Source: an uncultured Alphaproteobacteria bacterium | GTDB lineage: Bacteria; Pseudomonadota; Alphaproteobacteria; Methylaequorales; Methylaequoraceae | Length of the DNA: 64,000 bases | NCBI GenBank assembly: GCA_902530985.1 | Contig: CACACI010000002.1 | Coordinates: forward strand, 18,461 to 82,460 | Reading direction: 5' to 3' | Part shown: piece after piece, positions 25,338-64,000 of the stretch | Position numbering within the stretch: the first letter of the stretch is position 1 | Layout: the number at the start of each line of letters is the position of its first letter | Translations under genes and position numbers: made by a program | The notes under the pieces: model-generated | What the model was told of the DNA's origin: nothing | Seen by the model: only the letters and a program-made list of their open reading frames with translations | Database searches by the model: none

Positions 25338-25353
25338 TGGCATTAATTTTGCT
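25338..25353 (+). promoter_or_regulatory. sigma-54 -24/-12 promoter motif TGGCATTAATTTTGCT
   Basis: GG-N10-GC spacing and flanks match TGGCAC-N5-TTGCW. Exactly 11 nt separate the motif from the ATG at 25365. Confidence 0.6.
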
Positions 25354-27098: not shown

Positions 27099-27114
27099 AG
27101 CAAAAGGTGTGCCA
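27099..27114 (-). promoter_or_regulatory. sigma-54 -24/-12 promoter motif TGGCACACCTTTTGCT (minus strand)
   Basis: Exact TGGCAC-N5-TTGCT, 75 nt upstream of the fliS-like ATG at 27023. Confidence 0.65.
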
Positions 27115-34112: not shown

Positions 34113-34128
34113 TGCAAATAGAATGCCA
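34113..34128 (-). promoter_or_regulatory. sigma-54 -24/-12 promoter motif TGGCATTCTATTTGCA (minus strand) upstream of fliC
   Basis: GG-N10-GC with TTGCA. 35 nt lie between the motif and the fliC ATG at 34077. Confidence 0.75.
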
Positions 34129-34308: not shown

Positions 34309-34328
34309 TTACAGATTGTCTTAGATTT

Positions 34329-35087: not shown

Positions 35088-35106
35088 AATTTTTTCTCCT
35101 TATGAT

Positions 35107-35862
35107 TTAGTTTAGTAAAGTTAATATATTAGCCATAGCTTGGTTTGCTTGCGCAACCATCGCTAAAGCAGATTGGTTTAGGATATTGCTTTGAGCTAAG
35201 TTCGTAGCTTCCTTAGCAAAATCAGTATCCTGAATTCTTGAAGCAGCAGAGCGTGCGTTGGCAGTTAATGAGTACATATTACTTTGATGCCCTTTTAACG
35301 CATTTATTCCCGCGGCCACTTGCCCCAAAGACGTTGATATAGTTCCCATTGCTGTATCAGCATTACTAACACCACTTTGAATGTTCGGTTTTTTTACCGC
35401 TCCAAGTTGTGAAAGTGTTCCTTTATTATTGATGGCAACTAAAAAAGTTGAAAGTAAATCTTTGTTATTTAATTTTGTATTACTAATTTTTTGTGCAGCT
35501 GAAACAATTTCATTCTCTTCAGATGTAATTGCTGCCTCTTGTTCAGGTGATAGAAAGTCAGCATTTAATTTTTGAACACCAAGCTCTCTTAATCTTGTAT
35601 TTAAAGTCGCTAATTCTAATAAAACAGCTTCTGTTGCTTGAAGAAAAGAAATTCCATCCTCAGCATTTCTTGCTGCAACATTAGCACTTCTAGCTTGAGT
35701 GGTTATATTACTTGCAACTGCTTGCCCAGCAGGGTCATAACCATTAAGTGTTCTAATTCCTGTTGAAAGACGACCCATTGATGCTGTCAATGTTCTTCTT
35801 GCTTTCGCAGAGGCGTTAACTGCATAAACGGCTCCATTTGTGTATGTCGAAAGTGATGGCAT
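35107..35862 (-). CDS. short flagellin (251 aa), tandem paralog of 34329-35087
   Basis: Same N- and C-domain motifs (GRLSTGIRTLNGYDPAGQAV..., IQDTDFAKEATNLAQSNILNQSALAMVAQANQ). GGAG RBS. Confidence 0.8.
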   Translation of the reverse strand: MPSLSTYTNGAVYAVNASAKARRTLTASMGRLSTGIRTLNGYDPAGQAVASNITTQARSANVAARNAEDGISFLQATEAVLLELATLNTRLRELGVQKLNADFLSPEQEAAITSEENEIVSAAQKISNTKLNNKDLLSTFLVAINNKGTLSQLGAVKKPNIQSGVSNADTAMGTISTSLGQVAAGINALKGHQSNMYSLTANARSAASRIQDTDFAKEATNLAQSNILNQSALAMVAQANQAMANILTLLN

Positions 35863-37820: not shown

Positions 37821-37831
37821 GGTAGTAATGT

Positions 37832-37847
37832 AGCAATATTCATGCCT
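37832..37847 (-). promoter_or_regulatory. sigma-54-like motif AGGCATGAATATTGCT (minus strand) in the flgK-flgL spacer
   Basis: Invariant GG-N10-GC and TTGCT are retained, and the first T is replaced by A. Exactly 11 nt to the flgL ATG. Confidence 0.5.
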
Positions 37848-45926: not shown

Positions 45927-45942
45927 TGCAAAACACATGCCA
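45927..45942 (-). promoter_or_regulatory. sigma-54 -24/-12 promoter motif TGGCATGTGTTTTGCA (minus strand) upstream of flgG
   Basis: GG-N10-GC with TTGCA. 38 nt lie between the motif and the flgG ATG at 45888. Confidence 0.75.
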
Positions 45943-46574: not shown

Positions 46575-46748
46575 TTAAATACTTAAATCATACATTCTAA
46601 TTTTAGATGAATATTTAGCTAACTTTCGTATTATTGATATATTATTTGGATCTAATGATAATTTCTTATTAAGGTTGTCTATTTTTAGACCGATACTAGA
46701 AAGTAATAATTCTTTCTCTTGATTGATTGAAATTGATAAATCATCCAT
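46575..46748 (-). CDS. small hypothetical protein (57 aa), trimmed from the 82-aa track ORF
   Basis: An internal ATG at 46748 lies exactly 11 nt downstream of a sigma-54 motif. Sequence MDDLSISINQEKELLL...DPNNISIIRKLAKYSSKIRMYD. Confidence 0.3.
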   Translation of the reverse strand: MDDLSISINQEKELLLSSIGLKIDNLNKKLSLDPNNISIIRKLAKYSSKIRMYDLSI

Positions 46749-46759
46749 AATACCCCGGG

Positions 46760-46775
46760 TGCAATCAATATGCCA
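46760..46775 (-). promoter_or_regulatory. sigma-54 -24/-12 promoter motif TGGCATATTGATTGCA (minus strand)
   Basis: Exact consensus spacing. Overlaps the start codon of the divergent HAD gene (46770). Confidence 0.55.
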
Positions 46776-48991: not shown

Positions 48992-50191
48992 ATGAATAAA
49001 ATTTCTAGTTTTGCAGTTCTTTTAATTGGATTCTGTTTTTCTTTTTTAATGTTAAATCCGATTGCTTTTGGTATATCGCTTAGCACAGGTATTTTAATTC
49101 TTACTTTCATTCATAATAATAAAGTCTTCAAACAATCAATTGAAATTATAAAAAAAACCAAAAGGCTCGATTTGTTAATATTTTTTTTATTTTTAATTTC
49201 ATTTTCTTTGGCTTCTTACAACTCAATCCAGATTAGCAGGTCAATACCTGTAATAATTTATTTAATATTATTTATTTTATTTGCCTTTGTAATTCATTTA
49301 ATATTTTCTGGAAATAAAAAATCTTTAGAATTAATCTTTAAATATTTTACATTAAGTCTTTTAGCTAACTCATTAATTATTTTCTTTTATAATATAACAA
49401 ACTATGAATTGGGATTTGATTTAATAAAGTTCAAGGGGTACATGAGTTTAATTTCATTGCTTACAATAATTAATTTCTTTTTTTTTAAATCAAAATTAAA
49501 TCTTATTTCAATAGCCGTTTTAATACCAAATATTTTTATGACTGGTTCAAGTTCGAGCATTTTAGGATTAATATGTGGATTTACTTTTTGTCTTAGTTAT
49601 TTAGTATTTAAAAAATATCTAAAATTTAAAAACAAAAAAATAATGCTAACGATTATTATATTAGTTATAGTTCTTCCTTCAATATTATTTTTTTCAGAAA
49701 AACTTCCTGGAAAATTTGACGATGAGTCAATTAAAAACTTCGAATACATTATACCCATTCAACTTATTGACCCTCACCGACAATTTATATGGGGTTTTTC
49801 AATAAACAAATTTAAAGATAAACCTTTGTTTGGACATGGTCCAGATTCATCTAATTTTATAGAAGGAAGTCAAATAGATATTGGCTCAGAACATACTGGT
49901 GACATGAACTTTATACCAAGTCATCCTCATAATTTCTTAATCGAATTACTGCTTGAAACTGGGATCATTGGAACCTTTTTATTTATAATTTTACTATTAA
50001 ATATAAACTCAAAGATTTGGAATTTAAATTCAAATACAAAGTTTAGGTTATTTCTAATTTTTTTTAATTCTTATTTTTGGTGCTCTTCATTAGTAAATTT
50101 TTCGTTTTGGCTTGGTTGGTGGCAAGGAAGTTACTATCTGCTACTTAGTTTGATAGCATCAAAAGGGTTTATCGAAAGAAAAATAAATTAA
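48992..50191 (+). CDS. O-antigen ligase / O-antigen polymerase family (Wzy_C) membrane protein
   Basis: 399 aa, about 10-12 TM helices. A large loop is followed by SHPHNFLIELLLETGIIG, typical of the WaaL/PglL/Wzy_C family. Confidence 0.7.
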   Translation: MNKISSFAVLLIGFCFSFLMLNPIAFGISLSTGILILTFIHNNKVFKQSIEIIKKTKRLDLLIFFLFLISFSLASYNSIQISRSIPVIIYLILFILFAFVIHLIFSGNKKSLELIFKYFTLSLLANSLIIFFYNITNYELGFDLIKFKGYMSLISLLTIINFFFFKSKLNLISIAVLIPNIFMTGSSSSILGLICGFTFCLSYLVFKKYLKFKNKKIMLTIIILVIVLPSILFFSEKLPGKFDDESIKNFEYIIPIQLIDPHRQFIWGFSINKFKDKPLFGHGPDSSNFIEGSQIDIGSEHTGDMNFIPSHPHNFLIELLLETGIIGTFLFIILLLNINSKIWNLNSNTKFRLFLIFFNSYFWCSSLVNFSFWLGWWQGSYYLLLSLIASKGFIERKIN

Positions 50192-50260: not shown

Positions 50261-50276
50261 TGGCATAAAAATTGTA
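50261..50276 (+). promoter_or_regulatory. weak sigma-54-like motif TGGCATAAAAATTGTA
   Basis: Correct -24 element and spacing, but the -12 element reads GT instead of GC. Confidence 0.3.
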
Positions 50277-50322: not shown

Positions 50323-51975
50323 ATGAATTCAATGGTTTCTGGTAATAATATTGATATTATATCAAAATTTTCTGCAATAATTAAAGATAAAAATAATTTC
50401 AAATCAGTTAGACTCCAAGGTCAAATTTATTTTAAAAATAAATATAATAGAAATAATAAATCTGATTTAGGTAATCTCTTAATGGCGGCCAATGATTATT
50501 CAATCGGAGACCCATTAAGTTCACTTAAAAGGCTTAGATTTATAATTAAAAATGATCCAAAATGTTCTTCAGCACATAATTTATATATAAAAATTGTTTT
50601 AAAAATAGGTCAGAACAAATTAATTGAAAATGCTCTTAAAGATGCAGTTAGGTATATCCCAAATAACCATTCATTTTTAAGTATGTGGGGTAAACATCTA
50701 CTTTTTGATGGAAAAAAGTTTGAAGCACTAGAATATTTAGAAAAATCAGTTGAAATGAATCCTCAAGATTGCTCTTATTGGATCGATCTAGGTTTTTGTT
50801 ACTATATTACAAGAAATATAAAGATGGCGACTTTATGTCTTGAAACTGCCAAAAAAATTAATCCAAATCACTTAAGATGCTTGAATTTTGCCCCACTATT
50901 ATTTCAAGAGGAATCCAAGTATGATGAAGCTATAAAAATTCATGAATACGCTTTAAATTTATATCCAGGTGATAATGCAATTATTACAGATCTTGCAATG
51001 TTATACCTAAAAGTAGGTAAAAAAAAAGAAGGATATAAACTGTATCATTCAATTAAACCATCCAGAAGATCTAATTTCTACAAACTAATAGATATTAAAA
51101 AAACTTCATTCAAAAAAAATCATATAAAGGCAATTGAGGCTATTGAAGATCTAAATAAAACTCATCTATCAGTAAGTAAAAAATATAGAATTTTAGTTTT
51201 CTTAGAACAAGGTTGTGGCGACATATTAAATTTTTATAGATTTTTAGACCCTCTTATAAAAAAAGGACATTCAATAACAGTCCTAACACATCAGAAACCT
51301 ATGATACCTCTTTTAAAGTTTTATGTACAAAGTGAAAAGATAAATTTACTTTCAGAAATTAAATATGAAGATATTAAAAGTTTTCAATATAAAACCTTTA
51401 TTCTCAATATCCCACATCTATTGAATATTGAGAAAAAGCCTCCTCCCCCTATCTTATTTTATTTAAAAGAATTAAAGAAAAATAAAAAGAACTTGGTTAC
51501 TCGATTAAGAAAATTTTTATCAACTAAAAAAAAAAATATTGGAGTTTCATGGAAAGGAAATAAAAGGCATCTTTATGATGAATCAAGATCAATTGATTTA
51601 AAGTTATTTAGCAAAATATTTGAAAATAAAAAGAATAATTTTTTTATAATAGATAAAGAAATAAGCAATAAAGAAAGAACTTTTCTATCTAAATTTAACA
51701 ATATTGTATTTTGTGACGAATTAATTAGTGATTGGAGTGATACTGCAGTAATTGTATCAGAATTAGATGAGGTGATTTCTGTTGATACCTCATTAGCTCA
51801 TATTTCTGGAACATTAAATAAACCAACACAAATCTTAATAGCTAAAGATCCTGATTGGAGATGGGGTTTAAAAGGAATGCAAACAGAATGGTATAAATCT
51901 GTTAGATTAAAAAGGCAAGCTAATCCAGACAATTGGACAGATGTTATGACTAGTTTATGTGATGAATTAAAATAG
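50323..51975 (+). CDS. TPR-repeat protein fused to a GT-B (GT9/heptosyltransferase-like) glycosyltransferase domain
   Basis: The N-terminal half has TPR-like repeats. The C-terminal half has GVSWKGNKRH...VISVDTSLAHISGTLNKPTQILI...DWRWG. I prefer the in-frame ATG at 50323 to the TTG at 50272. Confidence 0.65.
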   Translation: MNSMVSGNNIDIISKFSAIIKDKNNFKSVRLQGQIYFKNKYNRNNKSDLGNLLMAANDYSIGDPLSSLKRLRFIIKNDPKCSSAHNLYIKIVLKIGQNKLIENALKDAVRYIPNNHSFLSMWGKHLLFDGKKFEALEYLEKSVEMNPQDCSYWIDLGFCYYITRNIKMATLCLETAKKINPNHLRCLNFAPLLFQEESKYDEAIKIHEYALNLYPGDNAIITDLAMLYLKVGKKKEGYKLYHSIKPSRRSNFYKLIDIKKTSFKKNHIKAIEAIEDLNKTHLSVSKKYRILVFLEQGCGDILNFYRFLDPLIKKGHSITVLTHQKPMIPLLKFYVQSEKINLLSEIKYEDIKSFQYKTFILNIPHLLNIEKKPPPPILFYLKELKKNKKNLVTRLRKFLSTKKKNIGVSWKGNKRHLYDESRSIDLKLFSKIFENKKNNFFIIDKEISNKERTFLSKFNNIVFCDELISDWSDTAVIVSELDEVISVDTSLAHISGTLNKPTQILIAKDPDWRWGLKGMQTEWYKSVRLKRQANPDNWTDVMTSLCDELK

Positions 51976-52089: not shown

Positions 52090-52105
52090 TGGTACGAATA
52101 TTGCT
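52090..52105 (+). promoter_or_regulatory. sigma-54 -24/-12 promoter motif TGGTACGAATATTGCT upstream of the plus-strand sugar operon
   Basis: Matches TGGYACG-N4-TTGCW. 37 nt lie before the ATG at 52143. Confidence 0.6.
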
Positions 52106-52142
52106 GTTTAATTTAACTAACTTGTAAGTATCGAAAGTTAAA

Positions 52143-53282
52143 ATGAAAACACTAAAATTAGCAATTGCAATACCAACATACAATAGATTATCTAAACTCA
52201 AACAATTACTTAAATCAATTGATACGCAAAACTATTGCAAGGATTTGGAATTATATCTATTTGTTTCAAATATAGCTTCAACTGATGGTACAGGCGAGTT
52301 TTTAGAGAATGAAAAGAAAAAAAGAAAAAATTTAACAATCTATAATCAACCTCAAGATCAGACTTTAAAACCAAATATATTCTATCTTAATAAAATCATA
52401 TCTTCAGATATTCAATGGGTTTGGTTTATGGGAGATGATGATAAATTATCAGAAAAAGAGTCTCTTCAAAAAGTATATGAATGTCTAAAAACAAATAGCA
52501 CTAAAAACTTAGAATTCGTTTGTGTTTGTGAAAAAAGAAGGTCAATGAATACTTCTAAAGTCTTTATTGATAAAGTTTTTAATCTTTGCAATAAATTTGG
52601 ATACCATGAAATGTTAGGTTGGATTTCTGGTATCATATTAAAAAAACAAACATTCCAAAAAGTATTTGATGATTTTGCACAATCTGTAAAAACTCAATAC
52701 CAGAATTTTGATGATTCCATAACTTCTGCTTATCCCCATTCAGCATCAATTCTAAAGTATACTCATAATAAAAACGGATTATTCTATGATATAGGTCTAG
52801 TTGAGCCTCAAGATACATTTCAGACAATAGAAACACAAAAAAGATGGGTAGAAGAAAATATGGTATGGAGATATTTTCATGTTATAGATGATATTGAAAA
52901 TTTAATAAATCTAAATATTCTTAAACCAAATAGTTTAAGTCTTTCTTTTTTTAGATATCACACCTATTACCTTTGGGATCACTTAATTTTCCTAACATTT
53001 AAAAGATTACCTAAATATATTCATTCCAGCGATGATATTGAGGATGTTAATAATTATATACGTATTCTTACAAATAATTTATGTAGATTATTAAAAACAG
53101 AAAACTTTCTCAGAGATGTTAAGGATAAAAAAGATCTAGCTCTAAAAATAACTATGTGTATTAATTATTTGCAGATTTATGTATCTAATAATTTTTCAGA
53201 GGAAATTAGAGTTAATTTATTTGATAATTTAACCAATCTCATCCAGATTCCAAATTTTCCATTTCAAATTTATTTAGAGTAA
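52143..53282 (+). CDS. family 2 glycosyltransferase with a C-terminal extension
   Basis: AIAIPTYNRLSKLKQLLKSI...VSNIASTDGT...FMGDDD (GT-A fold, DxD). Confidence 0.65.
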   Translation: MKTLKLAIAIPTYNRLSKLKQLLKSIDTQNYCKDLELYLFVSNIASTDGTGEFLENEKKKRKNLTIYNQPQDQTLKPNIFYLNKIISSDIQWVWFMGDDDKLSEKESLQKVYECLKTNSTKNLEFVCVCEKRRSMNTSKVFIDKVFNLCNKFGYHEMLGWISGIILKKQTFQKVFDDFAQSVKTQYQNFDDSITSAYPHSASILKYTHNKNGLFYDIGLVEPQDTFQTIETQKRWVEENMVWRYFHVIDDIENLINLNILKPNSLSLSFFRYHTYYLWDHLIFLTFKRLPKYIHSSDDIEDVNNYIRILTNNLCRLLKTENFLRDVKDKKDLALKITMCINYLQIYVSNNFSEEIRVNLFDNLTNLIQIPNFPFQIYLE

Positions 53283-53285
53283 TTA

Positions 53286-54605
53286 ATGGAACATTTAAAT
53301 GACATAAGAAAGAAAATTTCAGATTTAGTTATTCACTATTCGAATATAAAATACGCAAAAAAAAATTTTACTCCTGGATTTGATAAAGTTCAAGTTTCAG
53401 GAAAAGTTTTAGATCATGACGAAACAGTTAATATGGTTGATGCTGCTTTAGATGGGCATTTAACTACTGGAAGATTTAACATAGAGTTTGAAAAAAAATT
53501 GTCTAGATTTCTTAATACGAGATCTTTACTCACCGTGAATTCTGGATCCTCAGCTAATTTAATTGCCTTTTCCAGTCTTACTTCACCCAAACTTGGTTCA
53601 AGAGCTATTAAACCAGGAGATGAAGTAATCACTGTTGCTGCTGGATTTCCTACGACAATTAATCCAATACTTTTGTATAAAGCTATTCCTGTTTTTGTAG
53701 ATGTCAAAATGGGTAATTATAATATTGATGAAGAAAGAATAGAAAGAGCAATAACTAAAAAAACAAAGGCTATTATGCTTGCTCACACCCTTGGAAATCC
53801 CTTTAATTTGAGCACTATTATAAAAATTTGTAAAAAATATAATTTATGGCTAGTTGAAGATTCTTGTGATGCACTTGGTTCAAAATTTAATGGCCAGAAC
53901 GTTGGTACTTTTGGAGATTTTGGAACTTTAAGTTTTTATCCAGCTCACCACATTACAATGGGAGAAGGAGGAGCAGTTTTTACCAATAATATTAAATTAA
54001 AGAAAATTGCAGAATCAATAAGAGATTGGGGTAGAGACTGTTTTTGTGCACCAGGTAAGGACAACTCATGTGGAAGAAGGTTTTGTTGGAAACTTGGCAA
54101 TCTTCCAGATGGTTATGATCATAAATACATTTATTCTAATTTAGGTTTTAATCTTAAAATTACAGATATGCAGGCTGCATGTGGTTTAGGACAATTAAAA
54201 AAACTAAATAATTTTATTAAAAAAAGAAATTATAATTTTAATTACTTACTTAAAAAGTTTGGAAGTTTAGAAGAATTTTTTATTTTGCCGGAAAAAACAA
54301 TTAATTCTGAACCTTCATGGTTTGGCTTCCCGTTAACCATTCGAGATAATAGATATTTTAATAGAAATGAATTGATTAAATATTTAGAACATAAAAATAT
54401 TCATTCAAGACTTTTATTTGCAGGAAATGTTTTAAAACAACCTTATATGATTGGGCAAACATACAGAGTTTCAGGAACATTAGAAAATACAGAAAAAATC
54501 TTATTTGATACATTTTGGTTAGGAGTTTTTCCAGGTTTAGAAATTCAAATGCTTGATTATGTAATAGATTCAATTTCAGAATATATATTATTCAAAAAAA
54601 AATAA
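53286..54605 (+). CDS. rfbH: NDP-4-keto-6-deoxyhexose 3-dehydrase (RfbH/DdhC/E1-type, DegT family)
   Basis: 439 aa. In the DegT-family motif SFYPAHHITMGEGG, His occupies the position of the usual PLP lysine. A Cys-rich segment CFCAPGKDNSCGRRFC is consistent with an Fe-S site. Confidence 0.75.
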   Translation: MEHLNDIRKKISDLVIHYSNIKYAKKNFTPGFDKVQVSGKVLDHDETVNMVDAALDGHLTTGRFNIEFEKKLSRFLNTRSLLTVNSGSSANLIAFSSLTSPKLGSRAIKPGDEVITVAAGFPTTINPILLYKAIPVFVDVKMGNYNIDEERIERAITKKTKAIMLAHTLGNPFNLSTIIKICKKYNLWLVEDSCDALGSKFNGQNVGTFGDFGTLSFYPAHHITMGEGGAVFTNNIKLKKIAESIRDWGRDCFCAPGKDNSCGRRFCWKLGNLPDGYDHKYIYSNLGFNLKITDMQAACGLGQLKKLNNFIKKRNYNFNYLLKKFGSLEEFFILPEKTINSEPSWFGFPLTIRDNRYFNRNELIKYLEHKNIHSRLLFAGNVLKQPYMIGQTYRVSGTLENTEKILFDTFWLGVFPGLEIQMLDYVIDSISEYILFKKK

Positions 54606-54674
54606 TTGTTTAAAACAAAAATCTATTATTATGAAATTAATAAAAGATAAAAAATAAAAAATAGAGAAACACTA

Positions 54675-55850
54675 TTGAGAAAAAGAAATAATATTTTTAT
54701 TATAATTCCTGCTAGAGGTGGATCGAAATCAATTAAAAGTAAGAATCTCCATATTGTAAACAAAAAACCGTTATTACAATGGACATTAGAGGAATCAAAA
54801 AAGGTAAAATCAGTCAGCAGAATAATTGTATCAACAGATGATAAGAATATAAAGGAATTTGCAAAAGAGTTTTGTGTAGATGTGGTTGATAGACCTAAAC
54901 AAATCAGTAATGACAACTCATCATCTGAAAGTGCGATTCTTCACACCTTAAAAAATTATAATGAAAAAAATATTATTCCAGAAATTATTGTTTTTTTACA
55001 ATGTACGTCACCATTAATATCATTTTGTGATATTGAAAAAGGAATAAAATATTTAAATGAAAACAGGCTTGATTCAACATTTGCATGCGCTTCTTTCGAT
55101 GGCTTTATTTGGAAAAAGAATAATAAACAATTTGAAGGAATCAATCATGATCATAGTAAGAGGTTAATGAGACAAAAACGATCAATAGAATATTTAGAGG
55201 CTGGTTCAATTTATATTATGAGAACAAAAAGTTTTTTGAAAGATAAATATCGTTTTTGCGGAAAATGTGAACCTTTCTTAATTGATAAGAAAAAAGTGTT
55301 AGACATTAATGATTATCAAGATGCTGACATAGCAGAAATTTATTTAAAAAATATTATTGTAAAAAATAAAATAATTTTAAATCAACCAAAAGCATTGATA
55401 ATGGATTTTGATGGAGTGCATACTAATAATAAAGTCTATTTAGATTCTAATGGCAATGAATTAGTCTTATGCTCACGAAGCGATGGTATGGGGCTAAAGC
55501 AATTAAAAGAAAATTCAAATATTAAATTATTAATTATTTCTAATGAACAAAATCAAGTGGTTCAAAAAAGAGCAACAAAATTAAATATTGAATGTATTCA
55601 AACTAATGGGAAAAAGATTGAAATACTAGATAACTGGCTAAAAGATAATACTCTAAAATATGAGGAGGTCATTTTTATAGGAAATGATATCAATGATATT
55701 GATTGTATTCAAAAAGTAGGAATAAGCTTTTGTCCGAATGACGCAGAGAATTTAATTAAGGAAAATGTGGATCACGTATTAAAACAAAGTGGGGGTAATG
55801 GGGCTATTAGAGAATTAACTAATATTTTATTATCTAAGATGAATGATTAA
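54675..55850 (+). CDS. neuA: fusion protein: CMP-nonulosonate/N-acylneuraminate cytidylyltransferase (N-terminal) plus KdsC-type HAD phosphatase (C-terminal)
   Basis: N-terminal IIIPARGGSKSIKSKN...LQCTSPL. C-terminal LIMDFDGVHTNN...SRSDGMGL...FIGNDINDI (HAD motifs I-IV). TTG start. Confidence 0.8.
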   Translation: MRKRNNIFIIIPARGGSKSIKSKNLHIVNKKPLLQWTLEESKKVKSVSRIIVSTDDKNIKEFAKEFCVDVVDRPKQISNDNSSSESAILHTLKNYNEKNIIPEIIVFLQCTSPLISFCDIEKGIKYLNENRLDSTFACASFDGFIWKKNNKQFEGINHDHSKRLMRQKRSIEYLEAGSIYIMRTKSFLKDKYRFCGKCEPFLIDKKKVLDINDYQDADIAEIYLKNIIVKNKIILNQPKALIMDFDGVHTNNKVYLDSNGNELVLCSRSDGMGLKQLKENSNIKLLIISNEQNQVVQKRATKLNIECIQTNGKKIEILDNWLKDNTLKYEEVIFIGNDINDIDCIQKVGISFCPNDAENLIKENVDHVLKQSGGNGAIRELTNILLSKMND

Positions 55851-56706
55851 AATCGGTAAAAATAATATTGGTAACTCTTATCCAATCTATGTAATTGCTG
55901 AAATTGGTATCAACCACAATGGAAACATAGAATTAGTGAAAACGTTAATTGACGAAGCCCATTTAGCAGGTGCTAATGCTGTTAAATTTCAAAAAAGAAC
56001 TCCACAAATTTGCGTTCCTGAAGAACAGAAATTAATTGAAAAAGATACTCCGTGGGGCAGGATGTCTTATTTAGAATATAAGGAAAAAATTGAGTTATCT
56101 AAAGATAATTATGAATTTATCGAGAAATATTGTAAAAAAAAAGGAATAGACTGGTTTACTTCATGTTGGGACATAGACTCCCTCGAATTTATAAAAAATT
56201 TTAATCCTGTTGCCTACAAGATTGCCTCAGCTTCATTAACTGACAAAATGCTATTAAAAGAACACTCTAAATTAAAAGAGCCTATAATTCTTTCTACTGG
56301 TATGTCTACCATGAAAGAGATAAAAAAAGCAGAACAAATTTTAAGTCACACTAATTTACTAATTGCGCATTCCACGAGTGCATATCCTTGTAAGTCTGAG
56401 GAACTTAATCTAAATGTAATCCAAACATTTGTTAAAGAGTTTGATCATCCAATTGGTTACTCTGGACACGAACTTGGAATTCAAACAACTCTGGCTGCAT
56501 GCGTTTTAGGAGCGTGTTTTATCGAAAGACACTTTACATTAGACAGGTCGATGTGGGGCACTGATCAAGCTGCATCACTTGAGCCGCCAGGTTTGAAAAA
56601 GTTAGTCAGAGATATTAGAGTTTTAGAAAAATCTTTAGGTGATGGAATAAAGAAAGTTTATGATTCAGAAAAAAGAATAAGAGATAAATTAAGATTGGTG
56701 AAATGA
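55843..56706 (+). CDS. neuB: NeuB-family nonulosonate (sialic-acid-type) synthase lacking the C-terminal SAF domain
   Basis: VIAEIGINHNGN...ANAVKFQKR...YKIASASLTD...STGMST...GYSGHE...IERHFTLDRSMWGTDQAASLEP. Ends at 287 aa, about 60 aa short of typical NeuB. Confidence 0.8.
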   Translation: MIKIGKNNIGNSYPIYVIAEIGINHNGNIELVKTLIDEAHLAGANAVKFQKRTPQICVPEEQKLIEKDTPWGRMSYLEYKEKIELSKDNYEFIEKYCKKKGIDWFTSCWDIDSLEFIKNFNPVAYKIASASLTDKMLLKEHSKLKEPIILSTGMSTMKEIKKAEQILSHTNLLIAHSTSAYPCKSEELNLNVIQTFVKEFDHPIGYSGHELGIQTTLAACVLGACFIERHFTLDRSMWGTDQAASLEPPGLKKLVRDIRVLEKSLGDGIKKVYDSEKRIRDKLRLVK

Positions 56707-57365
56707 AAAAAAAGATATTAAATATCAAAAAAAGTTTTGATTACGAAAATGCTTATATGCTCTCTGCCCCGGTAGAAAGAATAGGTAAGCTTGTAAGTAG
56801 ATTTGAGTTATTTAATAAGATAAAAGCTATACCAGGTGAAATAATAGAATGTGGAGTTTTCAAAGGATCCTCTTTATCTCAATTTTTAAAACTAAGGGCA
56901 CTTTATGGACATTCGTCCTCAAAAAAAATCATAGCATTTGACACTTTCGGAAAATTCCCTGAAAAATGTTCCTCTGATGATAAAAAGTATTTGAAAAATT
57001 TTACTAATGAAGCTGGCAATCAATCTATTGAAAAAAATGAATTATTAAAAATATTTAAACAATTGGGTGTTGATAAAAATTTAGACTTGATAAAGGGAAA
57101 TATTTTAAAAACACTTCCACAATTTATAAAATCAAATAAACATATAAAAATCTCTTTATTACATGTCGATGTAGATACTTATGAACCTACTAAACTCTGT
57201 TTAGAAATCCTATATCCTCATGTAGTGAAGAATGGTGTGGTTATCTTAGATGATTATGGTGCTTTTCCTGGTGCTAATAAAGCAATTGACGAATTTTTTA
57301 GTAATAAACCAAATGTTATTAAAACCTTACCTTACTCAAGTTATATAAGTTATGTCATTAAATAG
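56703..57365 (+). CDS. TylF/macrocin-O-methyltransferase family SAM-dependent methyltransferase
   Basis: GEIIECGVFKGSSL...LLHVDVDTYEPTK...GVVILDDYG. Confidence 0.75.
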   Translation: MKKKILNIKKSFDYENAYMLSAPVERIGKLVSRFELFNKIKAIPGEIIECGVFKGSSLSQFLKLRALYGHSSSKKIIAFDTFGKFPEKCSSDDKKYLKNFTNEAGNQSIEKNELLKIFKQLGVDKNLDLIKGNILKTLPQFIKSNKHIKISLLHVDVDTYEPTKLCLEILYPHVVKNGVVILDDYGAFPGANKAIDEFFSNKPNVIKTLPYSSYISYVIK

Positions 57366-58839
57366 GTATTTAAAACTTCTAGAACAATTTAATAATAAAA
57401 GTCTCAGTGTAAAATCAAAAAAACTGCTGGTCCTTTCTAATGATTCTAATGACTTTATAATTAATTGTTCTATTGCTCATGTTCTTGTAAAACTTGGCCA
57501 CAAAGTGACTTTATTTATCCAAAACTCCGATCAAAGTCTGAAAAAAAACTTCAATGGATTTAGTTTTCAAAGTATGTTTGCATCAATAATTAAAGTTATT
57601 ATTAAGAATGAAATTTATGTTGAATACGAAAAAGAAGTTGTTGGCAAGAATGCAAATATTTCGACAAAATTAAGAAAGAAAATTTATCGTCAGACTGAAG
57701 AGGATATTCAAAGGATTTTGAAAAATCCTCTTTATGAAAAGAATCAGAAAAATAAAAAGTTATTTGAGAAAATTCAAAAAAGAAACTTGGATTTTGCCAT
57801 TAAATTCAAATCATTTGTTAAAAAAAATAAATTTGATAATTATATTATTGACAGTGGATCATGGGCAGAATATGGAGTGGCGTTCTCAATTCTCCAAGAA
57901 CTAGGTAAAACAATAACTTGTTACGGTTATAAAAACGACAAAAACAGTATTATGATCTCAAAAAATACTCCTTTCAATGATTTGGATATTGATGAAGCTT
58001 GGAAGAAAATGAAAAACAAATCTATTCGTAAATCGTATTTTACAATTGAAAAGATCTCAAAAAAGAAATTTTATACAAAAGATGTTTTCTTAAATTTTCA
58101 TACCGAAGATCCATTAAATAAAGAAAAAGTTTATAAAAGATTATTTTTAAAAAAAAATAACTACACAATTTTAATTCTTACTAATCTTGCCTTTGATACA
58201 ACTGTTCTAACAAAAAAAACAAACCACTTGTTTAAATCTCATTTTGATTGGTTAAAAAAAACAATCAGCTTTTTGGCACAAAAAAATAACTGTAATATTA
58301 TTATTAGACCACATCCTGCTGAAAAATTAACAAATTGCAATATGTCATGTGAAAGGTATATCAATAATTATTTAGATAAGCTTGGCGACAATTTTACCAT
58401 ACTCCCAAGTCAAACTTCAATAAATACCTATGGTTTGATAGACATAGCAGATTTAGGTTTAGTATATTCCTCAGATATAGGTTGGGAAATGGTTTTGAAG
58501 AATAAACCAGTGATTTCTGGTGGAATGGGAGCTGCGTGGGGTAAAAATATTCAATATGATCCAAAAAGTTTGAGGGATTATTTTAATAAAATTAACTTTT
58601 TTGTTAAAAATAAAAATTTCACTTTACCTAATTTAAAAAAAACAAATGCAGTAAAATTTATGAATTTTTACATGCAAGAAGTACCTAAAACTTTTCCTTT
58701 CCCTTTGTTTGAATATTGGAATAACAATACATTTAATAAAGCAGTAAAAATTTTTCAAAGTTCAACAATATCTAAAAAATATAAAACAACTTTTGAAAAT
58801 TTAAGTAATCCTTTATTACGAAAAAAAGGTGTTATTTGA
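57352..58839 (+). CDS. putative glycosyltransferase, capsule-biosynthesis KpsS/KpsC-like (ulosonic-acid transferase-like)
   Basis: 495 aa. The C-terminal half IIIRPHPAEK...INTYGLIDIADLGLVYSSDIGWEMVLKNKPVISGG resembles the Capsule_synth family. Weak call. Confidence 0.4.
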   Translation: MSLNRYLKLLEQFNNKSLSVKSKKLLVLSNDSNDFIINCSIAHVLVKLGHKVTLFIQNSDQSLKKNFNGFSFQSMFASIIKVIIKNEIYVEYEKEVVGKNANISTKLRKKIYRQTEEDIQRILKNPLYEKNQKNKKLFEKIQKRNLDFAIKFKSFVKKNKFDNYIIDSGSWAEYGVAFSILQELGKTITCYGYKNDKNSIMISKNTPFNDLDIDEAWKKMKNKSIRKSYFTIEKISKKKFYTKDVFLNFHTEDPLNKEKVYKRLFLKKNNYTILILTNLAFDTTVLTKKTNHLFKSHFDWLKKTISFLAQKNNCNIIIRPHPAEKLTNCNMSCERYINNYLDKLGDNFTILPSQTSINTYGLIDIADLGLVYSSDIGWEMVLKNKPVISGGMGAAWGKNIQYDPKSLRDYFNKINFFVKNKNFTLPNLKKTNAVKFMNFYMQEVPKTFPFPLFEYWNNNTFNKAVKIFQSSTISKKYKTTFENLSNPLLRKKGVI

Positions 58840-58844
58840 ATAAA

Positions 58845-60311
58845 TTACTTGAATATAAATTTGTCATAATCAGGAAGATTATTGGGGTCAATACCAAGAC
58901 CTTTTTTTAACAAATTTTTATTTCTGGTATTATTCAATCTATTATCAACACTTCTAATTAAATCTTTACAGAAGTAGTCAATCATAATTTGAATATTTCC
59001 TTCACCAAATTCTTTTAAATTGAAAGAAAGGTTTGACTGTTGTTTCTCTATAAGAAATTTTGCAATTTCATACTCAATTTCAATTATATTTCCATATTTT
59101 ATGCTGCATAAATAAAAATTTTCTTCATATCTAAATCTGGCTTCCTTACTAACGACAAAATCACTCTTTTGAATTATTTCTCTCGTTTTTTTATCGTATG
59201 TAATTTTAAATGGAACGAAATTCCTAAGTGATTTTCCATGAATCTTGCCATTAATTATTGGACCAACCATCAATGGATCTTTTCCATTAAGTTTTCCCGA
59301 ATAAGCTTTAGCATCAACTCTGCATCCACTATTACACACATATTTATAATCACATTTTTTACATTCATTAAAAGCTAATGATCCATCATGCCAATTTCTT
59401 AGTTTTTTATATTGTTCAGATAAATCAATTTCATCATTAAATACATTTCCTAATCTTTCTGAAGAGAGATGTACACACGATCTTATGTCTCCATTGGGTA
59501 AGATATTTAACCTATGACCTCTTTGAGTAGGACACCCTCTTCCAACAAAATCTGCATACTTTTGAAGATCACCCAGCAAACATAGGGGATAGCTTACTAT
59601 TGTACTAACATCAATTCCAAACTCATCTCTCGCTTTTATAAGTTGATCTAAACACTCTAATGCTGATTTTTTTGATAATATATTTGGATTTTCATCATTT
59701 GTATTTTCATAATCTACCTCTGTTTCGTAATCAGGCCCAACTATCCGTGTGGCAAAAATCCTCTGACATCCTAATTTACTAGCAAGTTTTGCTGTCAGAT
59801 AAACTTGATTTTTATTAGAGTTGTGAACAACCATATTTGCACTAACCCTAAACCCAACCTTTATAGCGTCTTCAATTCCACTTGTTATTCTATCAAATGC
59901 ATTTTTACTATTAACCAATTTATTTGTAACATCAGACAAATACGATGGTAAACTTGTCAAAATATGATCACAACCCGAGTCAAATAATCTTTGTAGTCTC
60001 TCTATTCTTTTGGCTTTTATTGAAAGATTACTATTTACAGAAGTTGAAATATTATTTTCTTTAAGTTTTTTGTTAAGATATAAAAGCATCTCAAAGTTTG
60101 CAAAAGCTTCACCACCAGATGATATAACATGAAAGACTTCAAAATTTATAAATTGTCTTACTAATTGATCTATTTTACCTTTATCTAGTTTTAAAGATCC
60201 CATCGAAAGATCTCTGTCAAAATTAAAACAATAAACACACTTTTCATTACAAATATCAGTAATTTCTAAATCTACTGTTGTTGGCGTTCTATAAATTCTT
60301 CGAGGTCTCAT
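58845..60311 (-). CDS. radical SAM enzyme with a canonical SPASM domain and a C-terminal extension of about 130 aa
   Basis: CNEKCVYC (CX3CX2C). SPASM motifs C-X13-G-X4-C (GCPTQRGHRLNILPNGDIRSC) and CX2CX5CX3C (CKKCDYKYVCNSGC). Confidence 0.85.
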   Translation of the reverse strand: MRPRRIYRTPTTVDLEITDICNEKCVYCFNFDRDLSMGSLKLDKGKIDQLVRQFINFEVFHVISSGGEAFANFEMLLYLNKKLKENNISTSVNSNLSIKAKRIERLQRLFDSGCDHILTSLPSYLSDVTNKLVNSKNAFDRITSGIEDAIKVGFRVSANMVVHNSNKNQVYLTAKLASKLGCQRIFATRIVGPDYETEVDYENTNDENPNILSKKSALECLDQLIKARDEFGIDVSTIVSYPLCLLGDLQKYADFVGRGCPTQRGHRLNILPNGDIRSCVHLSSERLGNVFNDEIDLSEQYKKLRNWHDGSLAFNECKKCDYKYVCNSGCRVDAKAYSGKLNGKDPLMVGPIINGKIHGKSLRNFVPFKITYDKKTREIIQKSDFVVSKEARFRYEENFYLCSIKYGNIIEIEYEIAKFLIEKQQSNLSFNLKEFGEGNIQIMIDYFCKDLIRSVDNRLNNTRNKNLLKKGLGIDPNNLPDYDKFIFK

Positions 60312-60315
60312 TGAT

Positions 60316-61215
60316 TTATTGATCTATATCCTTTCTAGAAATAATTTGCATAAGGGAAAAATTTCCTTCAGGCACATCAAGTTTTTTAAAATCAACTACA
60401 TTTAGTTTACATTTTTTTAGTAAATTTAGAATTGATTTTTTTGAAAAAAAATTTATATGTTCGTGCCAATGTCTTTTATCTTGATAGGATTTTTCTTTAT
60501 TATTAATTTCAATCATAAGTTTTTCATAAGGAATTTCGACATATAACAATGACCTTGAACTCATATTTTTTTTTATATCAATTAGAGTTTCAGATGGATA
60601 GGAAACGTGTTCAAGAACATTACTACAAATTATTAAATCATATGTTTTATTTTTTAAATCAGATTTTTTGACCTTAACAGCACCTTTAACAGTTTTTGAG
60701 TCTCCTAAATCATAAATATGAATGCTTTTATTATTATTTTTAAACGGCGTATTTTTACCAGTATCACCTCCCCAGTCCAAAATGCTTACTGGCAATTTCA
60801 CATTTCTTTCGATAAATTCCTCTACTTTATCTAGGTACGTGATACCTTTTATTAGTTCAGTATTTCTTTTTTTATAATTTTTTTCATATTTTTCTCGAAG
60901 TTTAGTATACCGACTGTTTCTATAACCAGTGTAAAGGTTTGAAAGTTCTTTTTCTGAAAATCTGATATCTAGAAATAAAAAATTACACTTACTACACATC
61001 AGAGTATTGCATATAGAGTAAGTCTGTCCCTTACTAATTGTTTTAAGCCCCCAACTCTTGTCTATTTTAATTTGCTTCCAATTAAAAACCCTTTCAGCAA
61101 TAAAAGGCATTAAAACTGCTGGACTGTTTTTTAATTTTTTTGAACCACAGCAAATACAAAATTCAGCAATTCTATCTTTAGGTAAATTTTTAAAATCTTG
61201 TTCAATTTGTTTCAT
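60316..61215 (-). CDS. SAM-dependent methyltransferase with an N-terminal zinc ribbon
   Basis: CICCGSKKL...CSKCNFLF (4 Cys). ILDWGGDTG and DLIICSNVLEHV class I methyltransferase motifs. Confidence 0.6.
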   Translation of the reverse strand: MKQIEQDFKNLPKDRIAEFCICCGSKKLKNSPAVLMPFIAERVFNWKQIKIDKSWGLKTISKGQTYSICNTLMCSKCNFLFLDIRFSEKELSNLYTGYRNSRYTKLREKYEKNYKKRNTELIKGITYLDKVEEFIERNVKLPVSILDWGGDTGKNTPFKNNNKSIHIYDLGDSKTVKGAVKVKKSDLKNKTYDLIICSNVLEHVSYPSETLIDIKKNMSSRSLLYVEIPYEKLMIEINNKEKSYQDKRHWHEHINFFSKKSILNLLKKCKLNVVDFKKLDVPEGNFSLMQIISRKDIDQ

Positions 61216-63106
61216 TCGTAAAATCTCTCATTGAATATGATTTTTTGTCAATTGGACCTGAGATCAATTTTTTTAATTCTTTAATCTCTAATAAAGGTGT
61301 CATATCTTCTATTGGTGAGGAAACCATTGTCCCATTATCCAATTTATATGCCGAACATTTAGGAATTAATTTTTCATCTTTATTTACGAAAATTTCATAA
61401 ATAATGAGTTCATCCGTGTTCAAAGTTTTTTTGATTTTATTAAAATCAGAATATTTTTTTATAACATATGATTTGATACCAATTGCTCTAGCAATCCTAG
61501 ATATAGAGGACGTTTCCATTCCAGAATTTTTGTTAATCCCTATAAATCTTCCTTTAAAATAGTTTTTTTGAGTATTTCTTATAGATACATAACCTTGATT
61601 ATTTATTAGAAAAATCTTTGCTTTACATTTGTTTGTTTTTAAAGTTTGTAACTCTTGAAGATTCATCATCGCACTTCCATCACCTTCATATAAAAATAAG
61701 TTTTTTTTTATTTGTGAACTAGCACCAACTAAAGCTGGGAACCCATAACCCATTGAACCTAACCCTGTTGTAAGAAATGTTTTTTGATTTCTTTTATTTT
61801 CAAAATGCGTATAAAAAACTTCAATACATAGACCTGAACTTCCTGTAACAATAGTACTATTTGGTGGAATTATTTTTGACAATAAATTTACAGTGCTATA
61901 AATACTCATACTATTCTTTTTTCTTAATTCGCTTTTTCCATACTTTGTTTTAAGATTGTTGCAAAAATTTATCCATCTAGTATTTTTATTTTTATATTCA
62001 TGATCTTTTAACTTGACTAATAAATCCGGCAAAAAATATTTACAATCAAATTTTAGTTTTTTAAATCTTCTGGGATGCTTCTTTAGTTCACCCTCATCAA
62101 TATCTATACAATAGATTACTGCATTTTTTGCAAAATTATCAGGATTGAAGGCCGTAACAATTCTATCTAATCTTGCCCCAATACTAATTAATAAATCACA
62201 GTTTTGAATTGTTAAATTAGCATTTCGTTTTGCCACTACCCCAGGTCTTCCAATGTAAAGAGGATCATTAAAAGCTAAAAGATCAATCATTGGCCAAGTA
62301 ACGCATACAGGAATATTTGAATACTTAATCAATTCAATAGCTAATTTTTCTGATTTTGAACTTTTAACTCCATGCCCCATTAAAAATAATGGCTTCTTAG
62401 ATTTTATAATCTTATTTATTAAATCATTGGGTATTTGTTTTTTAGCCTCAATTATTTCATTCTTCAGGAAAGGTTTATAATCAAAAGGAATTTTAACTTT
62501 TTGGGATTGAATGTCTAAAGGAATATCAATCAAACATGGTCCAGGTCTTCCATTTTTTGAAAGATTTACAATTTTGCTAAGTTTCTGTAAAAAATTCTGA
62601 TGATCTGTAATTGTTTCAGAATACTTGGTTATCCCTTTGACCATCGAAACTATATCAACTTCTTGTGGACCCTTTTGCCTTAATTTCTTTTCAAAATTAA
62701 TATCATCCGTTTTAACTTGACCTGAAATGACCAAAAGAGGAATCGAATCAATCCATGATCCAGCTATACCTGTTATCGAGTTAGTAGCTCCGGGACCAGT
62801 TGTTACCAATGCAACCCCTATTCCTTTGTTGAGCCTTGAATATGCTTCGGCAGCAATTACTGCAGATTGTTCATTATGAGTACAAATACATTTAATATCT
62901 GGGTGTCGTCCTACTGCATCAACAAGAAACATATTTCCACCACCAGGCACAAGAAAGACAGTGTTTGTTCCAATTTTGGAAAGATAATCAAAAAGAAGAT
63001 AAGAAAGTGTATCTTCTTTTTGTTTTAAATTAATTCCCCTAAATTCTAAATTTTTGTCATCTAAATTATTTATTAGAGGTTCATTATTATAATTAATTTT
63101 ATCCAT
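61202..63106 (-). CDS. thiamine-diphosphate-dependent enzyme, acetolactate-synthase-large-subunit-like
   Basis: 634 aa. N-terminal Pyr domain (VFLVPGGGNM...NEQSAVIAAEAYSR...TGPGATN). ThDP motif GDGSAMMNLQELQT...INNQGY. Confidence 0.85.
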   Translation of the reverse strand: MDKINYNNEPLINNLDDKNLEFRGINLKQKEDTLSYLLFDYLSKIGTNTVFLVPGGGNMFLVDAVGRHPDIKCICTHNEQSAVIAAEAYSRLNKGIGVALVTTGPGATNSITGIAGSWIDSIPLLVISGQVKTDDINFEKKLRQKGPQEVDIVSMVKGITKYSETITDHQNFLQKLSKIVNLSKNGRPGPCLIDIPLDIQSQKVKIPFDYKPFLKNEIIEAKKQIPNDLINKIIKSKKPLFLMGHGVKSSKSEKLAIELIKYSNIPVCVTWPMIDLLAFNDPLYIGRPGVVAKRNANLTIQNCDLLISIGARLDRIVTAFNPDNFAKNAVIYCIDIDEGELKKHPRRFKKLKFDCKYFLPDLLVKLKDHEYKNKNTRWINFCNNLKTKYGKSELRKKNSMSIYSTVNLLSKIIPPNSTIVTGSSGLCIEVFYTHFENKRNQKTFLTTGLGSMGYGFPALVGASSQIKKNLFLYEGDGSAMMNLQELQTLKTNKCKAKIFLINNQGYVSIRNTQKNYFKGRFIGINKNSGMETSSISRIARAIGIKSYVIKKYSDFNKIKKTLNTDELIIYEIFVNKDEKLIPKCSAYKLDNGTMVSSPIEDMTPLLEIKELKKLISGPIDKKSYSMRDFTNETN

Positions 63107-63134
63107 TTAATTTGTTTAAAAAGTGTTTATTTGG

Positions 63135-63150
63135 TGCAATTATAATGCCA
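63135..63150 (-). promoter_or_regulatory. sigma-54 -24/-12 promoter motif TGGCATTATAATTGCA (minus strand) upstream of the ThDP-MT-rSAM operon
   Basis: Exact consensus spacing. 28 nt lie before the ATG at 63106. Confidence 0.6.
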
Positions 63151-63161
63151 TACTATTAGGC

Positions 63162-64000
63162 GTGAAGCCCAAGAAACTTAGTATTTTTAATATTGGTGAG
63201 GAAGATTTAGAATTAATTCTCGCCAAGTTAAAAACATCAATCGTAAAGCTTAAAAATTCTAAAATCTTTATAACTGGTGGAACAGGATTTTTTGGAAAAT
63301 CTATATTAAGCGGATTATTACATCTAAATTTATCATTAAATTTAAATATTAAAATTTTTGTTTTATCAAGAAATCCAAAAAAATTTAAAAGAAAGTTTCC
63401 TGAGGTAAATAAATATAAAGAACTATTTTTTATTGAAGGTAATATTGTTAACTTTTCAACAATTGAAAATGGTTTTACTCATATTATTCATGGTGCTACA
63501 GAAACCTCAATTGAAGCACATCAAAAGATTTCCGATTTATCCGAAGTTATTATTGATGGCACTAGAAATATATTAAATTTTGCTAATAAAAAAAAAATTA
63601 ATAATATCCTTTATATTTCTTCGGGATCAGTTTATGGAAAACAGTCCATAAAAGACTTTATAAAGGTTAATGAAAACTCTGGTTTTTTTTTAAACTCGTC
63701 AAACTTTACTGATGCAAGCGGAATATTGAAAAAGTCTGCTGAATTACTTTGTAATTATTGGGCATCTGAAGCACCAGAAAAAACAATTAAAATTGCTAGA
63801 TGCTTTTCATTTGTAGGCCCATGGCTTCCCATTGACACTCATTTTGCTATAGGAAATTTTATAAAATCTGCAACAACAAATTCCGACATAATTATTCATA
63901 GCGATGGATCCTCGTTAAGAAGTTATTTGTATACATCAGATCTTGTTATTTGGTTGTTTAGAATTTTATTATTTGAAAAAAAGTTTCTTACCATAAATGT
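63162..64000 (+). CDS. NAD-dependent epimerase/dehydratase (SDR) family protein, 3'-truncated by the window edge
   Basis: Not in the ORF track, because the frame stays open to the window end. My translation gives KIFITGGTGFFGKSIL (Rossmann) ...ILYISSGSVYG. There is no in-frame ATG, so the start is a GTG at 63162 or 63123 and is uncertain. Confidence 0.7.
   Translation, partial: MKPKKLSIFNIGEEDLELILAKLKTSIVKLKNSKIFITGGTGFFGKSILSGLLHLNLSLNLNIKIFVLSRNPKKFKRKFPEVNKYKELFFIEGNIVNFSTIENGFTHIIHGATETSIEAHQKISDLSEVIIDGTRNILNFANKKKINNILYISSGSVYGKQSIKDFIKVNENSGFFLNSSNFTDASGILKKSAELLCNYWASEAPEKTIKIARCFSFVGPWLPIDTHFAIGNFIKSATTNSDIIIHSDGSSLRSYLYTSDLVIWLFRILLFEKKFLTIN

Follow-up and report, generated by a model that had tools for sequence, protein, structure and literature searches.

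Goon et al., in Mol Microbiol in 2003, reportedly placed a sigma-54 promoter before the Campylobacter jejuni gene Cj1293 (pseB). In Helicobacter pylori, flaB forms an operon with jhp0106 (HP0114, Maf/PseE) that was shown experimentally to be transcribed from the RpoN promoter of flaB (PMC5368276), and sigma-54 wiring of flagellin-glycosylation genes is itself already known in that genus. The Caulobacter flagellin pseudaminyl transferase FlmG binds flagellin through an N-terminal tetratricopeptide-repeat (TPR) region and carries a C-terminal GT-B glycosyltransferase domain (PMC7591256; bioRxiv 10.1101/2022.03.25.485807). Here we analyze a 64,000-nt stretch of the genome of an uncultured marine alphaproteobacterium (the window; 29.5% G+C, 93% coding and 7% intergenic), in which a cluster of late flagellar genes lies next to sugar-biosynthesis and glycosyltransferase genes. 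We interpret the region from about 46.7 kb to beyond the end of the window at 64 kb as a probable flagellin-modification (glycosylation) island, hypervariable in content and tied to the sigma-54 tier of the flagellar hierarchy; the filament is the most likely destination of its sugars.

The sigma-54-type motif in the window and at flgG

We sought the promoter motif as the strict pattern TGGCAY-N5-TTGCW and under a looser rule that requires GG-N10-GC and at least 10 of the 11 positions of the consensus TGGCAC-N5-TTGCW. The window contains six matches to the strict pattern; 100 dinucleotide-preserving shuffles averaged 0.09 and never gave more than two, an enrichment of more than 60-fold. This agrees with a first-pass annotation of the same DNA, which had counted six exact copies where it expected far fewer than one per 64 kb. 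The looser rule returned seven sites, compared with 0.74 expected under a first-order Markov model. All seven are intergenic and oriented toward a start codon 11–75 nt downstream; by our own calculation, the probability that seven of seven would be intergenic by chance is about 9e-9.

The late flagellar genes occupy the minus strand at 26.3–45.9 kb and include flgG, flgH, flgI, the rod-binding flgJ, flgK and flgL. The filament genes (26300–35862) comprise two flagellins of about 250 aa, one flagellin of 519 aa, fliD, three fliS paralogues and a 254-aa flagellin-like gene, whose product has the flagellin N-terminal domain only. Exact copies of the motif precede flgG, the first gene of the flgG-H-I-J-K run (45927..45942, minus strand; our reference flagellar site), the 519-aa flagellin (34113..34128, minus strand) and one fliS paralogue (27099..27114, minus strand; gene at 26622–27023), and a close match, AGGCATGAATATTGCT (37832..37847, minus strand), stands 11 nt before the flgL ATG. 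The flagellar copies that the first-pass annotation had used for reference, before fliC, flgG, flgL and a fliS paralogue, are therefore all present, with the 519-aa flagellin as the fliC in question. The two flagellins of about 250 aa have no motif. The remaining exact copies precede the thiamine diphosphate (ThDP) enzyme gene discussed below, a 286-aa S-adenosylmethionine (SAM) methyltransferase gene (site 25338..25353, plus strand, 11 nt before the ATG; gene 25365–26225) and a 57-aa open reading frame (ORF) at 46748–46575 (site 46760..46775, minus strand, 11 nt before the ORF). The last two copies had been left undescribed in the first-pass annotation.

FlgK is unusually large in this cluster. 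At 1696 aa (37860–42950, minus strand), several times the typical FlgK length, it carries a very large insert; its FlgK_D1 domain and C-terminal rod domain are normal, and the protein is 82–83% identical in L001–L007. A sigma-28-like word, TGTCGTTW, was seen before two fliS genes and set aside, being not significantly enriched (four found, 1.7 expected). Rfam and tRNA scans of the 64-kb window gave no matches.

Related loci were collected by an FlgG scan with one genome kept per species, which yielded 80 loci; nine more (L081–L089), including the metagenome contigs L081–L085 and L089, bring the set to 89. FlgG identity to the window is 90–100% in 28 of the 80 loci. These belong to uncultured marine Alphaproteobacteria, mostly single-cell genomes (AG-895-B20, AG-911-L17 and others), together with metagenome-assembled genomes (MAGs) labelled Rickettsiales or Pelagibacteraceae. 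The remaining 52 loci (70–75% identity) come from, among others, the SAR116 cluster, strain IMCC14465 and Candidatus Levibacter. One 17.9-kb contig (L001, PBAP01000021.1) encodes an FlgG 100% identical to that of the window and neighboring flagellar proteins that are 74–92% identical; it was deposited in a MAG labelled Flavobacteriales, probably through a binning error.

TGGCAY-N5-TTGCW stands 31–44 nt before the flgG ATG in all 80 loci, across 27–57% G+C. These sites form 32 distinct 16-mers. None departs from the consensus at any of its 11 positions, and every base occurs at the five spacer positions. When 15 of the flgG upstream regions were aligned and footprinted, the only conserved blocks were the motif and the Shine-Dalgarno/ATG segment. 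A fixed GG at -24 and GC at -12, held at exact spacing around a free spacer, is the signature of sigma-54 recognition. Because the consensus is invariant at flgG in 80 of 80 loci while the spacer is free, these comparative data argue strongly for a sigma-54 promoter at flgG, and no other explanation appears to fit across such a compositional range. Beyond flgG, AGGCAC-N5-TTGCT occurs 10–12 nt before flgL in L001, L003, L010, L011, L017 and L021, and in more distant (outgroup) loci the motif also precedes flgB, flgE, flgK, flgL and flagellin genes. One of the genes behind the motif in outgroup loci encodes a hook protein of about 1430 aa.

A position weight matrix (PWM) trained only on the flgG sites of relatives and scored over 127,962 window positions ranked the sites of the ThDP operon, the family 2 glycosyltransferase (GT2) operon and the TPR gene 7th, 8th and 12th, respectively. 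We did not adopt this matrix as main evidence, as it is over-fitted to the flgG spacer and lifts two coding false positives; consensus matching and conservation were used instead.

Promoters of the sugar operons and of the transferase gene

The GT2 operon lies behind the site TGGTACGAATATTGCT (52090..52105, plus strand), which is 37 nt before the ATG at 52143 and matches 10 of the 11 consensus positions. By Pfam and NCBIfam scans, its six genes (52143..58839, plus strand) encode GT2 (52143–53282), RfbH (53286–54605; NCBIfam equivalog with 699 bits, cut-off 423), a fusion of a cytidylyltransferase with a KdsC/KDN-9-P-type phosphatase (54675–55850), a NeuB-like synthase (55843–56706), a TylF methyltransferase (56703–57365) and a 495-aa protein that weakly resembles KpsS/Capsule_synth (57352–58839; E 0.002, below the Pfam cut-off). 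The genes abut or overlap, save for a 69-nt gap before 54675. A PDB sequence search with the 495-aa protein returned nothing informative.

Orthologues of this operon are found in L002 and L008 (GT2 78–79% identical) and in the metagenome contig L089 (68%), and the motif is at the same place in each: TGGCATAACTTTTGCT in L002, TGGCATAACATTTGCT in L008 and TGGCATGACAATTGCT in L089. In a four-way alignment of the DNA upstream of GT2, the motif and one extra G form the sole conserved block in otherwise diverged intergenic sequence. With high probability, the GT2 site is a sigma-54 promoter, as judged from this footprint and the consensus. Transcription is predicted to start about 11–13 nt 3' of the GC, that is, near 52117 for the GT2 operon and near 63123 for the ThDP operon.

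It may be argued that the motifs are functionless chance occurrences in AT-rich intergenic DNA, which is compositionally odd and in which short motifs can recur. The motif is G+C-rich at fixed positions in a genome of low G+C, however, and its copies are consistently oriented and spaced relative to start codons and are conserved across the 80 loci and in the orthologous sugar operons. Taken together, the enrichment, the GT2 footprint and the flgG conservation effectively refute an origin by chance.

In L089, the operon is collinear with that of the window and lacks the cytidylyltransferase/phosphatase and NeuB-like pair (54675–56706 in the window, compared with 5234–5426 in L089). The pair reads as an insertion or deletion module inside the predicted sigma-54 operon.

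The ThDP operon (58845..63106, minus strand) is convergent to the GT2 operon. The same scans identified a ThDP (acetolactate-synthase-like) enzyme (61202–63106), a methyltransferase (60316–61215) and a radical SAM/SPASM enzyme (58845–60311), in a gene order kept in L081, L083, L088 and L089. The gene names given to both sugar operons in the first-pass annotation hold, the KpsS-like match being sub-threshold; the two 16-mers it had singled out as operon promoters are present at their positions, 37 and 28 nt before the respective ATGs. The second of these, TGGCATTATAATTGCA (63135..63150, minus strand), precedes the ATG at 63106 and matches 10 of the 11 consensus positions. It lies in a 55-nt divergent intergenic region shared with a GTG-initiated gene for an NAD-dependent sugar dehydratase/epimerase (63162..64000, plus strand), which adjoins the ThDP gene in L081–L085 and runs off the window.

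All five contigs that hold the 5' end of the ThDP operon (L081–L085; protein identity 76–94%) have the same 16-mer at the same 28-nt spacing. Two features count against reading this conservation as that of a sigma-54 site. First, the whole 55-nt region is conserved, spacer included, so that GG and GC are not singled out. Second, the spacer reads TATAA and is followed by a T, giving a perfect TATAAT, and a sigma-70-like element, TTCACG-N16-TATAAT, overlaps the site with a score of 10 out of 12; because the entire region is conserved, the two cannot be separated here. The site might accordingly have been conserved as a sigma-70-type promoter, or as part of a control region shared by the epimerase and ThDP genes, its likeness to sigma-54 promoters being coincidental. 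We regard this as quite unlikely, since sigma-70-like matches are no commoner in this AT-rich region than predicted (96 found, 102 expected) and the exact motif is expected only 0.09 times per window; moreover, the site was ranked 7th by a matrix trained elsewhere, and all other island units have the motif without TATAAT. The ThDP site nevertheless appears somewhat less secure than the GT2 site.

An inverted repeat lies inside the ThDP ORF at 62986–63025, 81–120 nt after the ATG (16-nt arms, 94% complementary, 8-nt loop, 13-pair stem), and carries a terminator score on both strands. We considered and rejected it as a downstream enhancer: the palindrome is kept in L081 and L083 and decays in L082, L084 and L085 despite the retained protein sequence. 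It is probably not a conserved regulatory site.

A third island promoter, TGGCATAAAAATTGTA (50261..50276, plus strand), is a variant with GT in place of GC at -12 and matches 9 of the 11 consensus positions. It precedes the gene for a candidate flagellin O-glycosyltransferase (50323..51975, plus strand) with an N-terminal TPR region and a C-terminal GT-B domain, an architecture like that of FlmG. The start codon compatible with the 562-aa database copy of this protein is a GTG at 50287. TGGCAY-N5-TTGTA precedes the orthologous gene in L002 (6158), L004 (5745), L006 (5812), L007 (5808), L008 (5797), L027 (5810) and L083 (2445), so that what the first-pass annotation had listed as a weaker copy is found in eight of eight loci, the window included. 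From this conservation, we take the GT variant to be a real, deliberately non-consensus site. Its retention suggests a promoter tuned for the transferase, possibly weaker or less tightly dependent on an activator. In L083 (2445–2576), the GT promoter of the TPR gene stands back to back with the canonical promoter of an RfbF-like glucose-1-phosphate cytidylyltransferase gene, the two lying 100 nt apart as a divergent sigma-54 pair.

Pfam recognizes the TPR region of the protein, there is a weak GT9 match, and homologues carry the GT9 domain PF01075. An AlphaFold model built with 25 homologues (predicted local distance difference test, pLDDT, 87; predicted TM-score, pTM, 0.83) has a TPR superhelix that leads into a Rossmann-type domain with two lobes. 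Its best fold matches in the PDB are SPINDLY and OGT, both TPR plus GT-B protein O-glycosyltransferases (E 3e-11 to 1e-8); the TM-scores are low because the domain orientation differs. The model thus makes the protein a candidate TPR plus GT-B protein O-glycosyltransferase of the soluble, protein-directed type. No Maf protein was found in the island.

Island variants and the target of the sugars

The island begins about 0.9 kb from flgG, at about 46.7 kb, and continues past 64 kb, since the epimerase gene runs off the window. At its base, after three housekeeping genes, is a gene for a Wzy_C membrane protein of the O-antigen-ligase/O-oligosaccharyltransferase type (48992..50191, plus strand), which has no sigma-54 motif upstream and which stands beside the TPR gene in L002–L009, L021 and L027. 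The cargo between the conserved flanks differs among L002, L003, L008, L009 and L089, with L002 and L008 sharing the GT2 operon of the window.

Several of the swapped genes lie behind the motif. In L003 (2924–4138) and L009 (2885–4129), it directly precedes a gene for the flagellin lysine-N-methylase FliB (NCBIfam NF038110; 190 and 217 bits against a cut-off of 85), which is absent from the window. The 57-aa ORF at the edge of the island is what remains of the N terminus of a 586-aa protein, for which L009 has an intact gene (7556–9316) and L003 a 596-aa counterpart (7548–9338). These proteins join a helical-repeat N-terminal half to a C-terminal sulfotransferase domain (PF13469), and the motif precedes the gene in both loci. 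The two-part fusion resembles the build of FlmG, an analogy that hints at sulfation of flagellin or its glycan.

We then counted the motif, with the GT variant included, in the window and 37 closely related loci (587 kb). Of 74 sites, about 64 precede flagellar or island genes: flgG (29), the TPR gene (8), the ThDP gene (6), flgL (6), GT2 (4), FliB (2), the sulfotransferase fusion (2), an uncharacterized 298-aa protein (2) and, once each, the RfbF-like cytidylyltransferase, a methyltransferase, a flagellin, a fliS paralogue and the remnant ORF. The remaining sites, about 10, have no ORF behind them, lie inside flgK or precede unidentified ORFs; their number is roughly that expected by chance in 587 kb (about 7, extrapolated). 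None of the 74 precedes a recognizable housekeeping gene or gene of another function. From this census, in which no site serves a recognizable gene outside the flagellum and the island, the island is predicted to depend on the flagellar activator or on an assembly checkpoint.

These findings can be combined into a model, whose sigma-54 dependence, activator, timing, flagellin acceptor and chemistry we infer from the observed motifs, statistics, placement, conservation and gene identities. A -24/-12 promoter would head each of the island units (the TPR/GT-B gene, the GT2 operon and the ThDP operon) and would be of the same kind as those of flgG, flgL, the large flagellin and the fliS paralogue. 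Sigma-54 RNA polymerase would wait at flagellar and island promoters alike as a closed complex, until a flagellar enhancer-binding AAA+ ATPase opened them together. The synthesis of activated sugars and the transferases would thereby be switched on with the rod, hook-junction and flagellin genes. One sugar would probably be a cytidine diphosphate (CDP)-3,6-dideoxyhexose made via RfbH; in L083, an RfbF-like gene likewise follows the motif. The ThDP enzyme may add a branch to the dideoxyhexose, which is the role of YerE in yersiniose synthesis. A second sugar, a cytidine monophosphate (CMP)-activated acid of the Kdo/Kdn/nonulosonic type, would come from the NeuB-like synthase and the cytidylyltransferase/phosphatase fusion. 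Finally, the TPR/GT-B enzyme, GT2 and the KpsS-like protein would assemble the glycan on cytoplasmic flagellin ahead of its export.

Flagellin is favored as the acceptor because of the TPR plus GT-B build of the transferase, the FliB and sulfotransferase variants of the island behind the motif, and the absence of export genes from the island; these three lines point toward flagellin, and none proves it. The last of them comes from Pfam and NCBIfam scans of the island ORFs at 48.9–64 kb, which returned no domain of Wzx, Wzz, an ABC exporter or an initiating phosphotransferase (the island runs off the window). Of what defines an O-antigen or capsule cluster, the same region holds just the Wzy_C domain protein and the sub-threshold Capsule_synth match. 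The first-pass annotation had read the promoters as sigma-54 promoters that tie the sugars to the flagellar regulon, with flagellin as the likely target, and the motif conservation, the transferase build and the FliB variants all support that reading.

A different reading would keep the sigma-54 promoters and change the rest: another activator would drive them, the sugars would go to lipopolysaccharide (LPS), to capsule or to general protein O-glycosylation through the neighboring Wzy_C-type enzyme, and the link to the flagellum would be one of genomic proximity only. The promoter class alone does not name an activator, and we found no common upstream site. The base of the island has a conserved Wzy_C gene, the KpsS-like match points to capsule chemistry, RfbH-type 3,6-dideoxyhexoses are classic O-antigen sugars, and a ThDP module also occurs in the non-flagellar sugar clusters of L086 and L087. 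Against this stand the census, with about 64 of 74 sites before flagellar or island genes and none before a recognizable gene of another function, the FliB genes behind the motif in island variants, the soluble, protein-directed type of the TPR/GT-B enzyme, and the lack of flippase, chain-length and export genes seen in the island. On balance, we consider this alternative unlikely.

Beyond the features of the ThDP site given above, several observations weigh against a flagellin-modification island under sigma-54 flagellar control. At the GT2 site, the fourth motif position is T in the window (TGGTAC) and the canonical C in the relatives. The Wzy_C gene at the island base, and the GT2 and KpsS-like enzymes, would also be compatible with polysaccharide synthesis. 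The distant homologues of the ThDP module in L086 and L087 are in sugar clusters with no flagellar gene seen nearby. Regular-expression searches of the six-frame translations of the window and the 80 loci found no ORF with an RpoN box and, for an activator, no ORF of activator size with GAFTGA/ESELFGH. Neither a mismatch k-mer enumeration over nine upstream regions nor the flgG footprint over 15 detected a shared upstream activator site, and a common activator for flagellar and sugar promoters is for this reason put forward as an inference. In addition, the Caulobacter genes flmG, flmA and neuB depend on CtrA and not on sigma-54/FlbD (PMC7591256).

Start-codon spacing and comparison with described systems

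The distance between motif and start codon is bimodal, at either 28–39 nt with a Shine-Dalgarno sequence or 10–13 nt without one. The short class comprises 19 sites, about a third, with an ATG start in all but one. It is represented in the window at 25338–25367, 37820–37847 and 46746–46775, and in relatives at L003 2898, 7522 and 18034, L004 5745, L006 5812, L007 5808, L009 7529, L027 5810, L001 8625, L011 18039, L017 8411 and L021 18374. The genes concerned include flgL, FliB, the sulfotransferase fusion, the FlmG-like gene in four relatives and the methyltransferase at 25365. Checking the start codons, we found that the flgL start agrees with the family profile and that the FliB ATG in L003 lies 5 residues before the profile start. 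The predicted sigma-54 transcription start in this class falls on or beside the A of the ATG, and leaderless transcripts are therefore implied.

Tentatively, the sigma-54 promoter may serve as a portable plug-in cassette for flagellin-modification genes, each swapped module bringing or acquiring its own, with the short class being leaderless; we rate this idea as possible rather than probable. The lack of a visible upstream activator site would fit an activator that works from solution, as FlgR of H. pylori reportedly does. The GT kept at -12 could give the transferase gene an expression level of its own, whether leakier or earlier.

The model proposed here offers a testable regulatory scheme for a streamlined, low-G+C, uncultured marine lineage, in which exotic sugars would be made only when a flagellum is built. 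Variable filament chemistry would then stay on the flagellar clock whichever module is swapped in, and such variability probably matters for recognition by phages and grazers. Given its strong conservation, the motif could also guide the annotation of flagellin-modification genes without a known function. The ThDP/methyltransferase/radical SAM module, the sulfotransferase fusion and the proteins of 298 and 286 aa are candidates.

Flagellar glycosylation islands are said to be among the flexible genomic islands of marine bacteria, as in populations of Alteromonas macleodii, and the island of the window is similar in that it adjoins the flagellar cluster and carries genes that are swapped from one close relative to another. 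To our knowledge, promoter-level wiring of each swapped module is not part of the Alteromonas description. In polar flagellar hierarchies, FleQ/FlrA and FlrC-type activators work with sigma-54, and the window resembles these systems (Vibrio FlrA/FlrC, Pseudomonas FleQ/FleR and Rhodobacter sphaeroides Fla1 FleQ/FleT) in having rod, hook, hook-junction and one flagellin gene behind -24/-12 promoters. The best family matches of the flagellin are polar-flagellin models; together with the FlgG N-terminus, these matches suggest that the flagellar proteins of the window are closer to the polar Vibrio or Rhodobacter Fla1 type.

The first-pass annotation had drawn its analogy to Caulobacter-type hierarchies. 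The architecture of the transferase is that published for FlmG; the analogy is imperfect and stops at the sugar genes, since flmG, flmA and neuB are CtrA-dependent there. Both systems are alphaproteobacterial and have a TPR/GT-B transferase, a NeuB-type synthase and a cytidylyltransferase whose expression is, or in the window would be, coupled to flagellar assembly. In Caulobacter, these genes are scattered and belong to the early CtrA tier, whereas those of the window form an island beside the flagellar genes under predicted sigma-54 control. If so, not all alphaproteobacteria follow the Caulobacter solution of placing flm genes under CtrA.

The likeness to H. pylori lies in the regulation, a flagellin-glycosylation gene being placed there on a sigma-54 promoter, as in the middle flagellar genes. 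Helicobacter and Campylobacter differ in being Campylobacterota with Maf-type transferases and pseudaminic acid, and in having one transferase on the flaB promoter. In the window, by contrast, each unit has its own promoter, the sugar-nucleotide operons included, the transferase is of the TPR/GT-B type, and the chemistry involves RfbH, ThDP and NeuB-like enzymes. Compared with these described systems, three features may be new: one promoter for each module, the class of leaderless spacing, and a non-consensus -12 element that is conserved.

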